Origin: Promethearchaeota archaeon
GTDB taxonomy: Archaea; Asgardarchaeota; Lokiarchaeia; Sigyniarchaeales; SOKP01
DNA length: 13,010 bases
Assembly: GCA_016839585.1 (NCBI GenBank)
Contig: JAEOTZ010000086.1
Location: forward strand, 1-13,010
Direction: 5' to 3'
The translations under genes were made by a program, and so were the position numbers. Below the pieces are notes generated by a model, which worked only from the letters and a program-made list of their open reading frames with translations, made no database searches and had not been told where the DNA came from. Below are positions 1,322 through 9,456 of the stretch, one piece after another (positions within the stretch are counted from its first letter, which is position 1; each line of letters starts with the position of its first letter).

Positions 1322-1360
1322 TTACTGTGCGATGAGAATATTGATCACAGTAATTTTAAA
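1321..1360. terminator. Putative hairpin/terminator between convergent mutM and the DUF4177-like gene
   Basis: Perfect 9-bp inverted repeat ATTACTGTG (1321-1329) / CACAGTAAT (1346-1354) with a 16-nt loop, starting at the last base of the mutM stop and followed by T/A tracts. Confidence 0.45.
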
Positions 1361-1424
1361 AAAATATTTTTAAAGATTTTAATTCTCAAGAACCAAATAA
1401 GCAATGACAGATAGAGGCCTTTTT

Positions 1425-1580
1425 TTAACTCTTCTCTCTTTCAAAGACTAAGTAAAATGAAGCAACTAATTTTAATTCCCATCCCTCAATTGCCTGATCA
1501 TTTATGATCTTTTCGAATTCCTTCGCATGCTTTGGGCTCGAGTAGATATTACCTACCGTTTCTACCTTATATTCTTTCAA
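1425..1580 (-). CDS. Small DUF4177-like protein (51 aa), absent from the ORF track
   Basis: Manual translation from TTG at 1580: MKEYKVETVGNIYSSPKHAKEFEKIINDQAIEGWELKLVASFYLVFEREKS*. The EYKV...IN...EGWEL...FER pattern is typical of DUF4177. GGTGA lies about 8 nt upstream; an alternative GTG start is at 1592. Confidence 0.8.
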   Translation of the reverse strand: MKEYKVETVGNIYSSPKHAKEFEKIINDQAIEGWELKLVASFYLVFEREKS

Positions 1581-1641
1581 TTTTATTATCACCCTATAAA
1601 TATAACATTATAAAATAAATAAAATAACAAAATAAAATTAA

Positions 1642-1920
1642 TTATTGAGTTGAGGTTGATTCCTCTTTTGAAGGCATATAGAAAAAGATCCCTATAAGAA
1701 TAATAATAAACAAGACAAACCCTATACCAAGCCCTATTAAGATGTCCAACCAGAAGAATCTTACAAGAAATTTACCAAAAGGATATCCAGGTTGATTATC
1801 TGTTAATAATTTATAATGAACTGCTGTTGTTAACACAATACCTATTATCGCACTTATAATCGTGAATATTATTAGGGCAGCTTTCCATTTTTTTGACTTT
1901 TCTCCCTCTTTAGATGCCAT
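1642..1920 (-). CDS. Small hypothetical membrane protein (2 TM)
   Basis: 92 aa with two long hydrophobic stretches (ALIIFTIISAIIGIVLTTAV; ILIGLGIGFVLFIIILIGIFFY), a charged N-terminus and an ATG start. Confidence 0.75.
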   Translation of the reverse strand: MASKEGEKSKKWKAALIIFTIISAIIGIVLTTAVHYKLLTDNQPGYPFGKFLVRFFWLDILIGLGIGFVLFIIILIGIFFYMPSKEESTSTQ

Positions 1921-2082
1921 CTTTACTGCCTTTTAGACTTTTTTTTATTGTTAAATGATAAGTTTTTTTACAAATTTATATATCTTGATTAATTGGATAT
2001 ACTTATGCCAAAAACTTAAAATTTCAAAAAGTAATTATTATATTATCCAGATTAAAATCTTACAAAACCAAACTTTTAAAGG

Positions 2083-2736
2083 GTGTCTTCAATAGTTCGA
2101 TTTACAGCAAATAATAAAGCTTTCATAAAGATTCTCTATTGGGGTATGGCAGCATCGGGAAAGACGACGATAGTTGACACACTTTATAGACTAACAAAAG
2201 AAAGTGAAAAAGATATAGTGCCGATAGGTGATTTAACTAAAATTTCTATGGCAAGCGGTGCTACTTTATATTTTGATCGAGGAACATTTCAATCAACCAA
2301 CCAAAAAGGTAAAAGAAATATAACTTTCCATGTGTACACCGTTGCAGGTCAAAAAAAATTCTCTCCATTAAGAAAGAAGATATTTGAGGGAACTGATGGT
2401 GTAATTTTTACAGTTGATTCCCAAACATATTTATTTGAAGATAATATTGAGTCCTTAAAGGAACTAAAACAGACAGCAAGAGGAAAATTAATCAAAGAAA
2501 TTCCTCTCATAGTAATGCTAAATAAGCAAGATTTAAAGAATGTAATTGGAAAGGAAGATTTCAAACATGTCTTAATAGATGAAAAACTATGGTTTGAACC
2601 AGATCATGAATTATATAATCAGAATCCCATTATTTATAAAACCTGTGCATTATATGACAAAAGAAAAGATGTTTATCGCAGTTTTTCTGAATGTGCGAGA
2701 CGAACGCAAAATTATCACAATTATGGATTTATGTAA
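2083..2736 (+). CDS. MglA-like small GTPase (Ras/Arf superfamily)
   Basis: G1 GMAASGKT after KILYW; switch I TLYFD (MglA TLFFD); MglA-type G3 substitute YTVAGQ (TVPGQ); DGVIFTVDS; G4 NKQD; G5 TCA. GTG start. Confidence 0.9.
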   Translation: MSSIVRFTANNKAFIKILYWGMAASGKTTIVDTLYRLTKESEKDIVPIGDLTKISMASGATLYFDRGTFQSTNQKGKRNITFHVYTVAGQKKFSPLRKKIFEGTDGVIFTVDSQTYLFEDNIESLKELKQTARGKLIKEIPLIVMLNKQDLKNVIGKEDFKHVLIDEKLWFEPDHELYNQNPIIYKTCALYDKRKDVYRSFSECARRTQNYHNYGFM

Positions 2737-2775
2737 ATGTTTCCCCCTATTCCACCTGAAAAAAATTATTCATAT

Positions 2776-2795
2776 TTTTTAATTATGGTTAATTG
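2776..2795 (+). repeat. 20-bp upstream/start-region repeat, copy 1 (TTTTTAATTATGGTTAATTG)
   Basis: Identical to 3447-3466 and at the same offset from the start of each zinc-ribbon gene. Confidence 0.85.
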
Positions 2796-3437
2796 GAATT
2801 ATTTATGAGATCTAATGAAAATGAATTAGATATCCCTAATAAATGTCCAAAATGTGGAAAACCATTAGAAATCCGTCATGGAGATTATGGGACTTACCTG
2901 GACTGTACTGAATATCCTAAATGTAAATACACTCAAGATATTTCAAGAAAAAAAACTACTAAAACTCGAGCAAGTATACCTTCTGTTTGCCCTAAATGTG
3001 GAAATAAATTAGCTATATATATGGGAAAGTTCGGCATTTTCCTCGCTTGTAATGGCTATCCTAAATGTAATTTTTCATATAACTTCGAGGATCCTACTAA
3101 TATCTCTTGTCCTAAGTGTGGCAAAATTATGAGAGAACGAAAAGGAAATTATGGCTTATTTTATGGTTGTAGTGGTTATCCCGACTGTAAATTTACATTC
3201 GATTTGAGAATTAAAGAGAAAAAAATCCAAAAACCTAAGAAGATGTTCGATCTAACTAGTAAGATTCTAAAAATTGATAAAGAAACCATAACTATTGATA
3301 AAGAAACTGTAATTCAAAGGGGGACTATAATATATTGCCCTCGATGTGATAATATGTTACGCTCAATAACTGTTCCCAGCGGGAAATTAATTTATTTTTG
3401 TAAAAGCTGCAATATAGGATATGAAAATCTAACTTAG
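2793..3437 (+). CDS. Stand-alone zinc-ribbon array protein A: 3 topoisomerase-type C4 ribbons (zf-C4_Topoisom/YrdD-like) plus a different C-terminal C4 ribbon
   Basis: Three CPKCG..L/M....G.[YF]G.[FY]..C..YP.C repeats, a Lys-rich linker, then CPRCDNML...CKSC. No TOPRIM or topoisomerase core. The true start may be ATG 2805. Confidence 0.88.
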   Translation: MELFMRSNENELDIPNKCPKCGKPLEIRHGDYGTYLDCTEYPKCKYTQDISRKKTTKTRASIPSVCPKCGNKLAIYMGKFGIFLACNGYPKCNFSYNFEDPTNISCPKCGKIMRERKGNYGLFYGCSGYPDCKFTFDLRIKEKKIQKPKKMFDLTSKILKIDKETITIDKETVIQRGTIIYCPRCDNMLRSITVPSGKLIYFCKSCNIGYENLT

Positions 3438-3446
3438 GATAAAAAC

Positions 3447-3466
3447 TTTTTAATTATGGTTAATTG
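3447..3466 (+). repeat. 20-bp upstream/start-region repeat, copy 2
   Basis: Identical to 2776-2795, 671 bp downstream. Confidence 0.85.
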
Positions 3467-4141
3467 TATTTATTAATGAAGTCTAATGAAAATGAGCCAG
3501 ATATACCTGAAAAATGTCCTCAATGTGGCAGCGACCTACAGGAACGAGAGGGAAAATATGGAAAATTCTTAGGTTGTACCAACTTTCCAGAGTGTAGATA
3601 TACATATGATTTGAGTGGTGATACTACTAATATTAAATGTCCTGATTGTGGAAAGAATTTAAGATTCCGTAGCAGTAGCTATGGTCGATTTTTAAGCTGT
3701 AGTGGTTATCCCGATTGTAAATTTGCATATAATCCAAACTTCACGGAACACAGGGATGTTTTCTGTCCTAATTGTGGAAAAGTTTTAGAAATGAGAACAA
3801 TTGATGGTGAAAAGTATTTAGGTTGTACAGGACATCCTGATTGCGATTTTAAACTCGATTGGGTTGATGTTCCAGAACAAGTTGAGAAAAAACAGATATA
3901 TCCCAAGTGTCCTAAATGTGGAAGCGAATTAGCAAAACGGAGAGGAAAATATGGTATTTTCTTGGGTTGTGTGAATTATCCTCAGTGTAGATTCGCATTT
4001 AATCCAGAATTCGAAAAGCAAGAAGATATTTTTTGTCCTGAATGTGAAAAAGTTTTGCAAGTTAAAATGGGAAAATATGGGAAATTTGTAAGTTGTTCTG
4101 GATTTCCAGATTGTAGATATACCTTTGATTTAAGAAATTAA
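3464..4141 (+). CDS. Stand-alone zinc-ribbon array protein B: 5 topoisomerase-type C4 ribbons
   Basis: Five repeats: CPQC..CTNFPEC, CPDC..CSGYPDC, CPNC..CTGHPDC, CPKC..CVNYPQC, CPEC..CSGFPDC, most with G.YG.F.GC hairpins. Paralog of the upstream gene (SNENE.DIP.KCP N-terminus). The true start may be ATG 3476. Confidence 0.9.
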
Positions 4142-4240
4142 TGAAAATATCTAAAGTTCAGTCTTATATATTACGGTCGTGGTTAAAACTTATATTTTAG
4201 CGAATAATATTGCAAATTATAATAAAGGGAGATTATTTAG

Positions 4241-4939
4241 ATGGCAAAATTTTTAACTACTCTTGAAACATCCGCTAAAATAGAAAAGATTATAAGACAA
4301 GCTAAGGAAGAATTAACCTTAATTACACCTTATTTAAAATTAACTCAAATCTTTCATGACCGTCTAATAGAAGCTGGTAATAGAAATGTTAACATTAAAC
4401 TAATTTATGGTAAAGAAGAACTTAATCCTGAGGATTTAGTAAATCTAAAAGAATTTAATAACCTGGAACTTTATTTCTGTGAGAATTTACATGCCAAATG
4501 TTATTTTAATGAAAATTTAATGGTAATTTCTTCAATGAATTTACATGAATTTTCTCAAACTAATAATCGAGAAATGGGGGTGCAAATCAAACTTGAAGAA
4601 GATCCAGAACTATTTAATGATGCAAAAAATGAAGCAATTTCTATTATTAAAGCTTCAGTAAAAGAAACAAGTGAATCAAAAATTTCAGGTTTAGAAGAAT
4701 ATAAAGAAAAGTATCAGGATAAAGGGTATTGCTTGAGATGTAAAACTGAAGTTGAGTTTAACCCTCAAAGACCATTATGTAGACCATGTTATGAAGTATG
4801 GAATAAATTTGCTGATCCATATTATCAAGAAAAATTCTGTCATAAATGTGGTAAAGATACACAAACATCATATGCACATCCCTTATGTAAAGACTGTTGG
4901 CAAGAGACTAAAAATAAACATAATTCATTAATTTCTTGA
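4241..4939 (+). CDS. Single-HKD phospholipase D-superfamily putative nuclease with C-terminal tandem C4 zinc fingers
   Basis: ITPYL, then LHAKCYFNE (HxK(x)4E variant), SSMNL and NNREMG, the Nuc/BfiI-like PLD signature. C-terminal two copies of C-x2-C-x12-C-x2-C (CLRC..PLCRPCY; CHKC..PLCKDCW). Confidence 0.85.
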   Translation: MAKFLTTLETSAKIEKIIRQAKEELTLITPYLKLTQIFHDRLIEAGNRNVNIKLIYGKEELNPEDLVNLKEFNNLELYFCENLHAKCYFNENLMVISSMNLHEFSQTNNREMGVQIKLEEDPELFNDAKNEAISIIKASVKETSESKISGLEEYKEKYQDKGYCLRCKTEVEFNPQRPLCRPCYEVWNKFADPYYQEKFCHKCGKDTQTSYAHPLCKDCWQETKNKHNSLIS

Positions 4940-5737
4940 AATAGTAGAAATGAATTTTATCCAAAGAATTGACAAGATGAGAGGGATAAATTTTGCGAAT
5001 AATAACATATAGAAGACCCTTATTTCGATTGATGCGTTTGGTGTAAAAAGCCATAATGAATCAAGGGCATTACTCAAATAATGTAAAATAATACCTGGTA
5101 TGAGGGAGTTTGTTTTTAGGACTAAATATCCCCAGAGTAGTCCCATACCGACCGCCCAAATAACTTGAGCTGTAGTAAAAACAAAATGTTCATAATTAAA
5201 CTCATGAAGCAGATTTGCATAATGTACTACTCCAAAAATAACTGCGGAAATAATTAAGGATTTTTTTTCAGAAATGGTTGCCAATAATAGAGTTAATATG
5301 ATCCCTCGAAACATTATTTCTTCAAATAGTCCAGCGTTAATATTAAGTAGCCAATATGACTCAGGAGGTAATATTCGAGAAGTATCGAAACTGTATTGCC
5401 CATAGATTAACGATCCAATAAGTTGAAAGATAACAAAAATCAAATAACAACTTACAGTATAAAATATTATTCTCGAAAAAGGGCGATAATTAGTAAAATG
5501 AATCCCATCTAAATAGTCTCGAAATGTATCGTAGTTTTTTGGGAGTTTATAAACAAATGGGACTATTAAGAATACTAATGAGCACCAAAATATGAATGTT
5601 ATAACAATTTGAATGATCTGGTCGACATTTTGATCGATAGAGGGAATTAATAAAGATATAAAGGCAGCAGCAACAACTATAGCTAAATTTGTAGCTATTA
5701 AAATAATGATTGATTTAATGGGTTTGTCAGCTAGCAT
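4928..5737 (-). CDS. CPBP-family intramembrane glutamic protease (type II CAAX/Abi-like)
   Basis: Multi-TM protein with EEIMFRG (EExxxR), FGVVH (FxxxH) and HYLSN (HxxxN). Its 3' end overlaps the PLD gene by 12 bp. Confidence 0.92.
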   Translation of the reverse strand: MLADKPIKSIIILIATNLAIVVAAAFISLLIPSIDQNVDQIIQIVITFIFWCSLVFLIVPFVYKLPKNYDTFRDYLDGIHFTNYRPFSRIIFYTVSCYLIFVIFQLIGSLIYGQYSFDTSRILPPESYWLLNINAGLFEEIMFRGIILTLLLATISEKKSLIISAVIFGVVHYANLLHEFNYEHFVFTTAQVIWAVGMGLLWGYLVLKTNSLIPGIILHYLSNALDSLWLFTPNASIEIRVFYMLLFAKFIPLILSILWIKFISTISRN

Positions 5738-5986
5738 TTTTCAATGACATTGATTTTATATTTAAAGTTGGTTTGAGATAATATAAGATATTAGGAGTCC
5801 ATTTTTAAAACCTTAAATTATTCAGTTTTTAAATATTCCAATTTACGAGCGCTAAAAAATGATATTTTGGTATTAATGGACAGTTTATAGATGGCTTAAT
5901 TGAGAATTCTCTTTCATAGTTATCAAACAAATTTTTTAATATGGTTTAAATTTGCTTATTCAATGAAAATTTTTATTATTTAAAAG

Positions 5987-7296: not shown

Positions 7297-7635
7297 TTAA
7301 AATTTATTTATTATAGAAATAACTGATTTTTTCAATTTCGGTAAATCTACTTTAATAGCTTCCCACGTAAGTTCTAAATCCACTCCGAAGTATTGATGGA
7401 TTAAAAGATCTCTCATTCCTGTAATTTCTTTCCAAGGGATCTCTTTATAATTGTCCTTAAAATCGCTAGGGATATTTTTAATAGCTTCCCCTATAATTTC
7501 TATCCTTCTAATTACAGAGTCTTGTAATTGCTTAGATTCTAGGAAATCTGATTTCTTTTTGCCCTTAATATACTCTTCAATTAAATTAATCGCTTCTAGA
7601 ATGTGTTCTAAAAAAATTTTTACATTTTTTTTCAT
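7297..7635 (-). CDS. hepT: HepT-like HEPN RNase toxin (DUF86)
   Basis: EIIGEA..., IPWKEITGMRDLLIHQY (Rx4HxY); 4-bp ATGA overlap with the upstream MNT gene. Confidence 0.92.
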   Translation of the reverse strand: MKKNVKIFLEHILEAINLIEEYIKGKKKSDFLESKQLQDSVIRRIEIIGEAIKNIPSDFKDNYKEIPWKEITGMRDLLIHQYFGVDLELTWEAIKVDLPKLKKSVISIINKF

Positions 7636-7919
7636 AAAATCTCAACTTGTTCAGCTAAAATTTGATCTTTTAATAAGGGATGAAGAGAATTATACGTAAG
7701 TACATCAACTTTACGTTTTAACACTTCCTCAAGTTCTATTTTTAACCTTGCTAAATCTAATAAGCTTTTAGTCCCTCTAAATTCTATTAATATATCTAGA
7801 TCGCTCTCATCAGTCATTTCTTCTCTTACTATAGAGCCAAATAAGGAGGCTCTTTTAACGTCATGCTCTCTTAATTTCTCCAAAATTTTTTCTTTAAACT
7901 TTTCAATTTGAGATACCAT
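7632..7919 (-). CDS. mntA: MntA-like minimal nucleotidyltransferase antitoxin
   Basis: LFGSIVREEMTDESDLD (GSx10DxD) and KVDV third Asp; 95 aa. Confidence 0.92.
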   Translation of the reverse strand: MVSQIEKFKEKILEKLREHDVKRASLFGSIVREEMTDESDLDILIEFRGTKSLLDLARLKIELEEVLKRKVDVLTYNSLHPLLKDQILAEQVEIL

Positions 7920-8028
7920 GTTTATTTATCAGACTATTCTTATGTTTATTTTTTCTTTATTTAGTATTATCTTAGCTAAGCTTAAAAAATTTATCTATTA
8001 AAAGTCCAAAAATTAATTGTAATAATAG

Positions 8029-8604
8029 CTATATTACACTGGGTTTACTAAACCTAACAAATTTCTGAGGATTTAGAGCATATCCTTTCTCATCGATTCT
8101 TCCACACCTTTTTAGTATCTCATTTGGAATCGGATTATTTCCAATTCTAAGATTCTTTAAATTTTTAAGACATTCAAGCCCTTCTATGGTTGTTATTGAA
8201 TTATCATAAAGATTGAGACTAAAAAGATTTGTCAGAGTATTCAACCCTTTAATTTTTTTAATTTCATTATCCTCTAAAGACAGATTTTCTAATGCTCTCA
8301 ATTGTTCTAAGCCTTTAATTTCATTTATTTTGTTCTCAGAAAGATACAATATCCTTAAATTTTTCAAATTCTCCAAACCAGTAATTTCTTCTATTTTATT
8401 TCCATATAAGTTCAATTTCTCCAATTTTACCAAAGTTTTTAAATTCTTGATGGAAGAAATATTATTATTAAATAGAATAAGGTTTTTTAAATTCTTTAAC
8501 TCTTCTAAGCCTTTGATTTGAGTTAAGTCATCGATTTGCATATTGCTCAAATACAATGTTCCATTTTTAACTCTTACTTTCTTAACTTTTACTCGTGCAA
8601 ACAT
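8029..8604 (-). CDS. Stand-alone leucine-rich repeat protein (SDS22-like, 22-aa repeats)
   Basis: About six 22-aa repeats LxxLxxLxxLxLxxNxIxxIxG plus a partial first repeat and a short C-cap. No signal peptide or TM segment seen. Confidence 0.92.
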   Translation of the reverse strand: MFARVKVKKVRVKNGTLYLSNMQIDDLTQIKGLEELKNLKNLILFNNNISSIKNLKTLVKLEKLNLYGNKIEEITGLENLKNLRILYLSENKINEIKGLEQLRALENLSLEDNEIKKIKGLNTLTNLFSLNLYDNSITTIEGLECLKNLKNLRIGNNPIPNEILKRCGRIDEKGYALNPQKFVRFSKPSVI

Positions 8605-8828
8605 TCTCAGATTTAGTTAGATTTAATATTCATGAATTGATCTTCTATCAAAGTTATAAGGAATATGAGTCCGAAAATAACCGCATATTGAAATTAAGTA
8701 ATCAATAGAAGAATATTTATCTCCATTTTATTTATTAATTCTAATTGATAATATTTCTATAAAGAATGTTAATTTATGCTCTTGAATTCTTTTCTTGAGA
8801 AAAGGATTGTATAAAAAAGGTCATAAAA

Positions 8829-9125
8829 ATGGTACACGATAAAGAAGAAATTCTCATAATGCTTAGAAAACTAAAGGCTGAAATCAAGAAAAAATATAAA
8901 GTAAAAAGTATTGGATTGTTCGGCTCATATGTAAATAATAAGCAAAAAGAAACAAGTGATATCGATTTTTTGATTGAATTTGAAGATGATGCTGATTTAT
9001 TCCATTATATTGGGTTATCCCTCTATTTAGAAGATCATTTTAATACAAAAGTTGATGTGATATCAAAACCCGCTCTGAAAAAAGAATTAAGGGAACAAAT
9101 TCTTCAAGAGGTAATATATGTCTAA
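8829..9125 (+). CDS. mntA: MntA-like minimal nucleotidyltransferase antitoxin
   Basis: LFGSYVNNKQKETSDID (GSx10DxD), KVDV; 98 aa. Confidence 0.92.
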   Translation: MVHDKEEILIMLRKLKAEIKKKYKVKSIGLFGSYVNNKQKETSDIDFLIEFEDDADLFHYIGLSLYLEDHFNTKVDVISKPALKKELREQILQEVIYV

Positions 9126-9456
9126 AAATTTTACAATTTACTTAAATGATATTAGAGAAGCAATAAATAGCATAGAAATTTTTGTAGAAGGAATGACCTT
9201 TGAAGAATTTAAAAATGATGATAAAACTTCGAGTGCAGTTATTCGAAAATTTGAAATAATTGGAGAAGCAACTAAGAATCTTCCTGAAGATATGAAAAAT
9301 CAACATTCGCAAATACCTTGGAAAGAAATTGCGGGAATGAGAGATAAATTAATTCATGCTTATTCTGAAGTTGATTTAAAATTAGTTTGGATGACTATTA
9401 AACAAAGATTACCTGAATTAAAATCTGTTATTGAAAAAATATCAGAAAATAATTAG
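9118..9456 (+). CDS. hepT: HepT-like HEPN RNase toxin (DUF86)
   Basis: FEIIGEA, IPWKEIAGMRDKLIHAY (Rx4HxY); 8-bp overlap with the MNT gene, with GAGGT upstream. Confidence 0.92.
   Translation: MSKNFTIYLNDIREAINSIEIFVEGMTFEEFKNDDKTSSAVIRKFEIIGEATKNLPEDMKNQHSQIPWKEIAGMRDKLIHAYSEVDLKLVWMTIKQRLPELKSVIEKISENN

Follow-up and report, generated by a model that had tools for sequence, protein, structure and literature searches.

A candidate modular neighbourhood around stand-alone topoisomerase-type zinc-ribbon arrays in a Promethearchaeota genome

The 13,010-nucleotide (nt) contig JAEOTZ010000086.1 of a Promethearchaeota archaeon carries four co-oriented genes that encode an MglA-like small GTPase, two proteins built of topoisomerase I (Top1)-type zinc ribbons (ZnR1 and ZnR2) and a single-HKD phospholipase D (PLD)-type protein ending in a double zinc finger (PLD-ZnF; Table 1). 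An original prediction made from the DNA had joined these genes in one system, with ribbon arrays recognising DNA for a PLD nuclease possibly gated by the GTPase. We tentatively read the locus, with close to an even chance of being right, as a lineage-specific modular neighbourhood around stand-alone Top1-type ribbon arrays, with no fixed four-gene system. At the level of gene type, ribbon–nuclease and GTPase–ribbon pairings turn up repeatedly in this archaeal family, although in small numbers of related genomes; the four-gene composition is unique to the source genome among the genomes searched, and PLD-ZnF is independent of the other three genes. By the window we mean the entire contig (C77), which belongs to a 3.45-Mb genome of 99% completeness and about 29% G+C; this source genome is denoted G000, and other G numbers denote the related genomes compared.

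Ribbon arrays recur beside nuclease and helicase genes

Ten of 400 genomes sampled across the phylum carry PLD-ZnF, and in two of these ten (G000 and G104) Top1 ribbons score above the Pfam cut-off. In both, all Top1 ribbons lie directly upstream of the sole PLD-ZnF gene and in the same orientation. G104, which belongs to another genus, encodes on one strand the end of a ZnR2-like gene, a 237-amino-acid (aa) three-ribbon protein, PLD-ZnF, a 183-aa protein and an 826-aa AAA_16 protein. Its PLD-ZnF is 32% identical to that of the window and occupies a distant, very long branch of a quick tree; because the two PLDs are so far apart in the tree, the ribbon–PLD adjacency is likely to have arisen independently in the two genomes. 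The same order and orientation in two of two genomes that hold both PLD-ZnF and ribbons, despite distant PLDs, argues against simple co-residence, in which a plastic, island-like region gathers GTPases, Roadblock proteins, toxin–antitoxin-like pairs and mobile nucleases, and the ribbons do not cooperate with them. We regard co-residence as possible, if rather doubtful; were it correct, the locus would be an ordinary plastic region.

Mapping of 18 stand-alone ribbon contexts across the order, in related genomes with some fragmented contigs, revealed other DNA enzymes in the adjoining positions. A ZnR gene is followed by a NurA gene in G086 and G054, with HerA next in G086 (L173:2156-5028). The match of the G086 NurA-like gene to Pfam is weak (E = 1.7e-4); the G054 gene (L433:13895-14779) is 83% identical to it, and the G054 contig ends within NurA. 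Ribbon arrays adjoin a conserved pair of genes, NERD-UvrD and p99, in G017, G010, G012 and G120, corresponding to four of the 30 loci at which this pair occurs in the order. In G093 and G012, free arrays come after a UvrD helicase that itself carries a fused ribbon; relatives of G000 encode UvrD–ribbon fusion proteins of 827–1,110 aa, and RNase H holds the corresponding position of a ribbon context in G108. Of 57 genes lying no more than two positions away from a ribbon block, Pfam assigns five to Ras/Roc, four to Roadblock, three to NERD-UvrD, two each to PLD and the Rce1-like family, and one each to RmuC and RNase H.

The fusions in the same genomes constitute a Rosetta-stone argument for a ribbon–helicase link, a second point against co-residence, and free arrays would be the split form of these ribbon–helicase fusions. 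Known fusions of NERD, Mrr or UvrD domains to zf-C4_Topoisom ribbons combine the same ribbon with a nuclease or helicase, whereas the window ribbons are encoded as separate genes and their partner is a PLD protein; the locus thereby points to a split form of known ribbon–nuclease and ribbon–helicase fusions.

Several observations weigh against this reading. PLD-ZnF occurs without ribbons in eight of the ten phylum-sample genomes and in 94 of 95 loci overall, these being bacterial and archaeal PLD-ZnF neighbourhoods searched by tblastn with up to 6 kb of flank; a single locus has a Top1 ribbon within 6 kb. Likewise, NERD-UvrD stands without ribbons in 26 of 30 loci, and about five ribbon contexts, including a syntenic group of four genomes, have no nuclease or helicase nearby. 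The 18 contexts come from related genomes and are not fully independent, and several of their contigs stop inside a ribbon gene. No PLD-ZnF was found at 80 metagenome ribbon-array loci, a scan that is uninformative on close relatives because it returned only distant arrays (28–44% identity). Finally, ZnR1, ZnR2 and PLD-ZnF lie behind separate promoter-like boxes, which speaks against an obligate operon. The ribbon–nuclease partnership proposed in the original prediction gains support from recurrence by gene type (PLD in G104, NurA/HerA, NERD-UvrD and UvrD–ribbon proteins); no conserved partner of PLD-ZnF was found.

Contigs of relatives often break within or just after a ribbon-array gene (L166, L167, L171, L174, L423 and L430), likely because paralogous ribbon repeats confuse short-read assembly, and downstream neighbours are hidden as a result. 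Contigs that stop inside ribbon genes include G074:C54, G010:C415, G064:C151, G093:C31 and G104:C46.

Two gene pairs near ribbon arrays are conserved in their own right. NERD-UvrD (about 590 aa) and the convergent p99 (96–99 aa, no known family) form a well-conserved module, exemplified by L232:12253-14321, with p99 detected in 23 of the 30 loci (L233-L262). The 183-aa protein, which has a weakly Rho_N/SAP-like N terminus, is followed by an AAA_16 ATPase of about 826 aa in a second conserved pair: the 183-aa gene is present in 11 of 12 examined loci with a cl17 match of at least 30%, with nine complete pairs in nine genomes (for example, L174:177-3236, L165:2277-5336, L232:9051-12104 and L224:10492-13578). 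This pair lies within a few kilobases of ribbon arrays in G017, G120, G108 and G104, and the AAA_16 ATPase is missing from G000.

ZnR1 and ZnR2 are candidate single-stranded DNA-binding accessories

ZnR1 and ZnR2 are tandem paralogues (about 41–43% identity) that both open with M(R/K)SNENE at the ATG codons given in Table 1, which are their most likely starts. Both far exceed the PF01396 cut-off of 32 bits (128.5 bits for ZnR1 and 214.9 bits for ZnR2). In ZnR1, three Top1-type four-cysteine (C4) ribbons are followed by a fourth, generic C4 ribbon at the C terminus (residues 180–207; Zn_ribbon_6 and Zn_ribbon_TFIIB) that resembles those of TFIIB and TFS. The ZnR1 orthologue in G086 is 81% identical, and ZnR2 orthologues of 52–76% identity keep all cysteines. 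With the two zinc fingers of PLD-ZnF, the arrays account for the 11 C4 modules (4+5+2) counted in the original prediction, a number we upheld, with eight assigned to the Top1 type by Pfam. These eight are also the only PF01396 matches in the whole G000 genome, so that the clustering of the ribbon genes is not a matter of chance.

Both proteins stand alone in the sense that they match only ribbon families in Pfam. No Toprim or topoisomerase core was found in either, and NCBIfam TopA models match through their C-terminal ribbons alone. ZnR2 aligns at 1e-9 with the ribbons at the C terminus of E. coli TopA (4RUL; TopA residues 664–794). Zinc-dependent binding of single-stranded DNA (ssDNA) has been reported for E. 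coli YrdD and the TopA C-terminal ribbons (PMC4678816), and we infer by analogy that ZnR1 and ZnR2 are YrdD-like ssDNA binders. The likeness to YrdD and to bacterial topoisomerase I C termini lies in the repeated four-cysteine Top1-type ribbons; unlike those proteins, the ZnR genes are archaeal, tandemly duplicated, carry four or five ribbons and lie beside nuclease, helicase or GTPase genes, and ZnR1 terminates in a different, TFIIB/TFS-like ribbon.

We hold, with slightly less than even confidence, that such YrdD-like ribbon proteins serve whichever DNA enzyme adjoins them, here an autonomous nuclease of the mobile-element or defence-island type. The arrays would bind exposed ssDNA, as the ribbons of TopA and YrdD do, and would act in trans as optional accessories that hold the enzyme encoded next to them on ssDNA-bearing targets, for which replicating or invading DNA are candidates. 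PLD-ZnF would also be able to act unaided, which is evidently the case in most genomes.

PLD-ZnF is a predicted nuclease that moves as a single gene

PLD-ZnF consists of a single-HKD PLD domain (residues 1–140), a flexible linker and two CxxC-x12-CxxC zinc fingers (residues 164–219). Its catalytic motif reads H84-x-K86-x4-E91 followed by S98-x-N100, with glutamate in place of aspartate. Across 27 homologues, H84, K86, N90, S98, N100 and seven of the eight cysteines are invariant, and at least 90% of the sequences retain C167, C216 and E91. An AlphaFold2 model (pLDDT 83.7) retrieves the PLD domain of SauUSI, Nuc, NucT and Zucchini as top Foldseek matches (probability 1.00, E = 6e-8 to 1e-6), with a TM-score of 0.7 relative to Nuc and NucT. 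Each chain of the model thus has a PLD-nuclease fold with one HKD half-site. By analogy with Nuc, BfiI and Zucchini, PLD-ZnF most likely forms a homodimer with one HKD active site that would cut nucleic acid through a phospho-histidine intermediate. Like Nuc, NucT, Zucchini, BfiI and the N-terminal PLD domain of SauUSI, it has a single HKD-type motif in each chain and is modelled with the same fold. It differs from them in that identity is only 14–19%, the motif is HxK-x4-E instead of HxK-x4-D, and none of those enzymes has the two C4 zinc fingers at the C terminus. Neither a signal peptide nor a restriction-enzyme DNA-recognition domain was detected in PLD-ZnF. A complex prediction for PLD-ZnF with ZnR2 scored 0.00, which is no verdict and carries no weight either way.

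The double CxxC-x12-CxxC module (about 70 aa) also forms the C terminus of TIR_2 (198 aa), Schlafen-AlbA_2 (462 aa) and leucine-rich-repeat (579–703 aa) proteins (L188 in G107:C128, L182 in G095:C388, L185 in G135:C69 and L017 in G038), and occurs in short open frames of 75–135 aa. Judged by its fusions, the module behaves as a promiscuous add-on to effectors typical of conflict systems.

The PLD-ZnF family has at least 587 confirmed matches in species genomes, spanning Bacteroidota, Chloroflexota (Dehalococcoidia), Spirochaetota, Methanosarcinales, DPANN, Gammaproteobacteria and Promethearchaeota, and full-length homologues are abundant at 40–90% identity and 95–97% coverage. Clustering of flanking open reading frames (ORFs) at 93 of the sampled loci yielded no partner family present in more than seven. 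The commonest neighbour is EVE-McrB plus McrC (six loci), and the directly adjoining genes are of mixed kinds, with housekeeping, restriction, integrase and other defence-type functions. Specific contexts include type IIG restriction with Mre11/Rad50-like genes, HerA-Mre11-Rad50 and a SIR2-STAND protein, and in Dehalococcoides PLD-ZnF has a cI-like repressor gene on one side and, 3.5 kb downstream on the other, an integrase gene. Even homologues of 62–88% identity occupy six differing contexts.

Nucleotide homology between the window and close relatives of its PLD-ZnF starts at 4185–4241 and ends at 4903–4925, with unrelated flanks, and is confined to the gene and at most about 55 bp upstream; in a quick tree the window protein nests among autonomous Promethearchaeota copies. 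Comparison of these loci shows a self-contained cassette, with a putative promoter of its own, a single-HKD domain and a double finger, that by this measure moves as one gene and landed at the window locus recently.

Relatives of the PLD domain alone (residues 1–139 or 1–167; 41–45% identity, different C terminus) are found in f237-like Vibrio parahaemolyticus inoviruses, where they are annotated 'DNA repair protein' (H1-H7), and on 620 mostly conjugative plasmids (H8-H19, enterobacterial); loci L343-L415 come from IMG/VR. On an IncHI1B plasmid the PLD-domain gene has a thermonuclease gene as its neighbour and lies near psiA and an H-NS gene.

The spread of the family bears on whether PLD-ZnF is itself a selfish or mobile-element gene (a homing-type nuclease, or a plasmid or phage anti-defence or exclusion factor) whose position in the window reflects an insertion opportunity. 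The arrival of one gene together with its putative promoter in numerous unrelated contexts, the Dehalococcoides copy between repressor and integrase genes, and the PLD-domain relatives in inovirus accessory regions and near psiA would all fit such a role. However, no conserved target, direct repeat or flanking repeat was found at the junctions of the gene, and many copies stand beside restriction, McrBC and SIR2-STAND genes, which host defence explains equally well; we also know of no homing-type PLD enzyme. We consider a primarily selfish role very unlikely. PLD-ZnF is a large, uncharacterised and highly mobile family, and we regard it as a sensible candidate, acting as one gene, for a role in defence or mobile-element conflict because it lies beside restriction/McrBC, SIR2-STAND and repressor/integrase genes and shares its finger module with TIR- and Schlafen-type proteins.

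The earlier statement that the locus corresponds to no named system holds. In PADLOC-DB 2.0, the GTPase, ZnR1 and ZnR2 have no matches and PLD-ZnF matches only DrmC, MkoB and DpdK, all weakly. DrmC of DISARM and DpdK of Dpd are the nearest known relatives by this measure, as the best PADLOC and NCBIfam matches (DrmC at 7e-10, partial; DISARM_DrmC_I at 6e-7), but PLD-ZnF scores 29.2 bits against a DrmC cut-off of 133 bits (NF038319), and DrmC itself lacks the double zinc finger. DrmA, DrmB (DUF1998), DrmD, DrmE and the methylase are absent from the window and from the commonest families of 148 genes flanking homologues. The CoCoNuT/McrBC paper mentions PLD domains, and does not mention a PLD plus double-finger architecture.

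The four-gene set is confined to one genome

A strict four-gene system is not borne out by related genomes. The set was found in no other genome among 154 of the order and 400 of the phylum, and at none of the 95 PLD-ZnF loci; the genomes covered include G045 and G086. The window GTPase had no counterpart near PLD-ZnF at any of the 95 loci, which together with the single ribbon-bearing locus and the separate promoter-like boxes of ZnR1, ZnR2 and PLD-ZnF leaves no strict unit.

The two most informative relatives display different arrangements. In G045, which is closest to G000 as judged by flank identity (Fpg 92%, GNAT 95% and GTPase 82% at the nucleotide level), the GNAT gene comes straight after the GTPase gene, and no ribbon or nuclease gene separates the two; because these two genes adjoin, the intervening 3.25-kb segment of the window (Table 1) is an indel. 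A 31-bp match between window positions 4488–4518 and the G045 intergenic region was set aside as AT-rich and probably fortuitous. Gene order in G086 runs PIN, Fpg, GTPase, three Roadblock/LC7 genes, ZnR1, a 63-aa ORF, NurA-like, HerA-like and AAA_16, and no ZnR2, PLD, protease or GNAT gene was found at this locus. The NurA-like and HerA-like genes of G086 take the position held by ZnR2 and PLD-ZnF in the window.

These comparisons supply points in favour of co-residence. Synteny is mosaic, with window genes mapping to differing neighbourhoods in G045, G086 and G018; the window also holds a PIN gene and two paralogous pairs of small genes; promoter-like repeats common to unrelated junctions could drive rearrangement; and all modules occur autonomously elsewhere. 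The GTPase and Roadblock families of Asgard archaea are, in addition, reported to be patchy and prone to transfer, loss and duplication. Set against this are the recurrent ribbon–PLD order and the ribbon–helicase fusions described above, and the frequency with which a GTPase gene immediately precedes a ribbon array.

Small GTPase genes recurrently precede ribbon arrays

The window GTPase is matched best by the Pfam Arf model (8e-19), and Ras, Roc and Gtr1/RagA also match. Its G3 motif conforms to T-V-x-G-Q (TVAGQ, compared with TVPGQ in group-1 MglA), and its G086 orthologue (95% aa identity) precedes three Roadblock/LC7 genes, a likeness to MglA–MglB. In contrast to that system, no Roadblock/MglB gene is present in the window, the best Pfam model is Arf and there is no tie to motility genes; seven Roadblock matches lie elsewhere in G000. 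A paralogue of 79% identity on G000:C15 is conserved across the genus; a second GTPase and a Roadblock-like match lie within about 3 kb of it, and its 9-kb locus gave no match to a ribbon or a PLD. Small GTPases and Roadblock proteins number in the dozens in Asgard archaea, have no assigned targets and are seldom found in informative operons (PMC10933270). Our literature search returned nothing relevant tying Roadblock proteins or GTPases to a zinc ribbon in archaea.

In four of the 18 contexts (G000, G074, G010:C415 and G064), the gene directly upstream of a ribbon array, on the same strand, encodes a small GTPase. As background, 1.4% of the 3,188 ORFs of G000 have a GTPase gene directly upstream and 9.1% have one within two genes. 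The chance probability of the GTPase-then-ribbon order is roughly 1e-4 (counted as four in 18 contexts or as three in eight groups), a value that rests on small numbers and related genomes. GTPase and Roadblock genes also precede ZnR in G086 and G054, and the GTPases of separate groups are less than 40% identical to each other. The repeated order suggests shared regulation, as far as gene order can indicate it. Our initial reading, in which the GTPase was a bystander and the ribbon–PLD adjacency a chance event, was revised after G104 and the mapping of the 18 contexts. Membership of the GTPase, which the original prediction had called its weakest link, thus also shows recurrence with respect to the ribbons (four of 18 contexts against 1.4%); the 95 PLD-ZnF loci lack it.

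A stronger interpretation, the original prediction in generalised form, would make the GTPase, with or without Roadblock proteins, a switch for ssDNA recognition by the ribbons and hence for the effector nuclease, in an architecture that is conserved while its parts are interchangeable. Such gating agrees with the order of GTPase, ribbon arrays and PLD nuclease in G000, with the G086 run of GTPase, three Roadblock genes, ZnR1, NurA and HerA, with a comparable run in G054 that has another GTPase, and with the upstream GTPases of G074, G010:C415 and G064, drawn from families less than 40% identical at a chance level of about 1e-4. Yet G045 keeps GTPase and GNAT genes with no ribbon or nuclease, the genus-wide paralogue lacks ribbon and PLD neighbours, and G104, G108, G017 and G012 pair ribbons with nucleases with no GTPase seen. 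Furthermore, the GTPase–ribbon pairs of G074, G010:C415 and G064 end at a contig break with no nuclease documented, and GTPases make up about 2.5% of ORFs and cluster among themselves. We judge gating unlikely, and the GTPase is not needed for ribbon–nuclease pairing.

It is similarly improbable, in our estimate, that the ribbon array is a hub at which a GTPase/Roadblock switch controls an ssDNA-binding ribbon protein that recruits interchangeable PLD-ZnF, NurA/HerA or NERD-UvrD enzymes. Were the hub model true, some Asgard small GTPases would act in nucleic-acid surveillance rather than membrane trafficking. The order of GTPase, ribbon and nuclease genes offers a concrete lead to one class of Asgard GTPase output.

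Layout and surroundings of the locus

ORF calls place the four genes of the block at 2083–2736, 2793–3437, 3464–4141 and 4241–4939 on the plus strand, bracketed by two minus-strand ORFs of which the downstream one overlaps the PLD-ZnF stop convergently by 12 bp. With the ATG codons of Table 1 as starts of the ribbon genes, the gaps measure 68, 38 and 99 bp, confirming the earlier description of co-oriented genes separated by less than about 100 bp and bounded by opposite-strand genes. The further claim that the GTPase and the single-HKD PLD are the sole catalytic domains also proved correct, in that Pfam detects no further catalytic domain in the four genes.

Table 1 Features of the window discussed in the text
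Feature	Positions	Strand	Evidence or remark
92-aa predicted membrane protein, upstream boundary	1642–1920	−	No firm Pfam family; no counterpart at this position in G086
Promoter-like 50-nt element upstream of GTPase	1963–2013	+	TATA-like box and ATG; blastn
MglA-like small GTPase, 217 aa	2083–2736	+	P-loop GMAASGKT, G3 TVAGQ, G4 NKQD
3.25-kb segment (ZnR1, ZnR2, PLD-ZnF, protease)	2712–5958		Absent between GTPase and GNAT in G045:C52 (blastn, tblastn)
20-nt promoter-like box, TTTTTAATTATGGTTAATTG	2776–2795	+	Ends 9 nt before ZnR1 ATG 2805
ZnR1, 210 aa	2805–3437	+	Start ATG 2805 (longest ORF from TTG 2793); PF01396 7e-38, three stretches
Second exact copy of 20-nt box	3447–3466	+	Ends 9 nt before ZnR2 ATG 3476
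ZnR2, 221 aa	3476–4141	+	Start ATG 3476; PF01396 8e-65, five Top1-type C4 ribbons
Upstream region of PLD-ZnF	4191–4240	+	TATA-like box and GGGAG ribosome-binding site; travels with gene
PLD-ZnF, 232 aa	4241–4939	+	PLDc_2 8e-12 at residues 16–120
Rce1-like/CPBP intramembrane protease, downstream boundary	4928–5737	−	Pfam PF02517 1e-17

Promoter-like elements recur in and around the block. The element upstream of the GTPase is 84–86% identical to sequences located directly upstream of the PLD-ZnF start on three metagenome contigs (L192, L193 and L034), and the AT-rich 20-nt box before each ribbon gene is duplicated exactly, against a chance expectation of 0.03 matches. Intergenic elements of 35–50 nt and 84–93% identity recur at unrelated junctions (window 1963–2013, 2759–2807 and 3447–3475), and the same elements form a patchwork downstream of ZnR1 in G086 (L173:5341-5514). 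Such recurrence may reflect portable promoters, possible recombination points behind the shuffling of genes.

The protease gene at the downstream boundary is part of the segment missing from G045, and its orthologue in G018 adjoins a PIN gene instead; a fragment with a protease match adjoins a ribbon gene in G120 (L224:6506-6715), and the Rce1-like family accounts for two of the 57 ribbon neighbours. At the upstream boundary, no counterpart of window positions 1327–2005 was found in G086.

Elsewhere in the window, Pfam identifies a PIN gene at positions 5–445, and at 7297–9456 a 191-aa leucine-rich-repeat-like gene stands between two pairs of small genes (112 and 95 aa, and 98 and 112 aa) that are arranged as mirror images. 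The two pairs are paralogous to each other, and HEPN/MNT is an earlier reader's label only. With the PIN gene, they make the contig rich in toxin–antitoxin-like genes.

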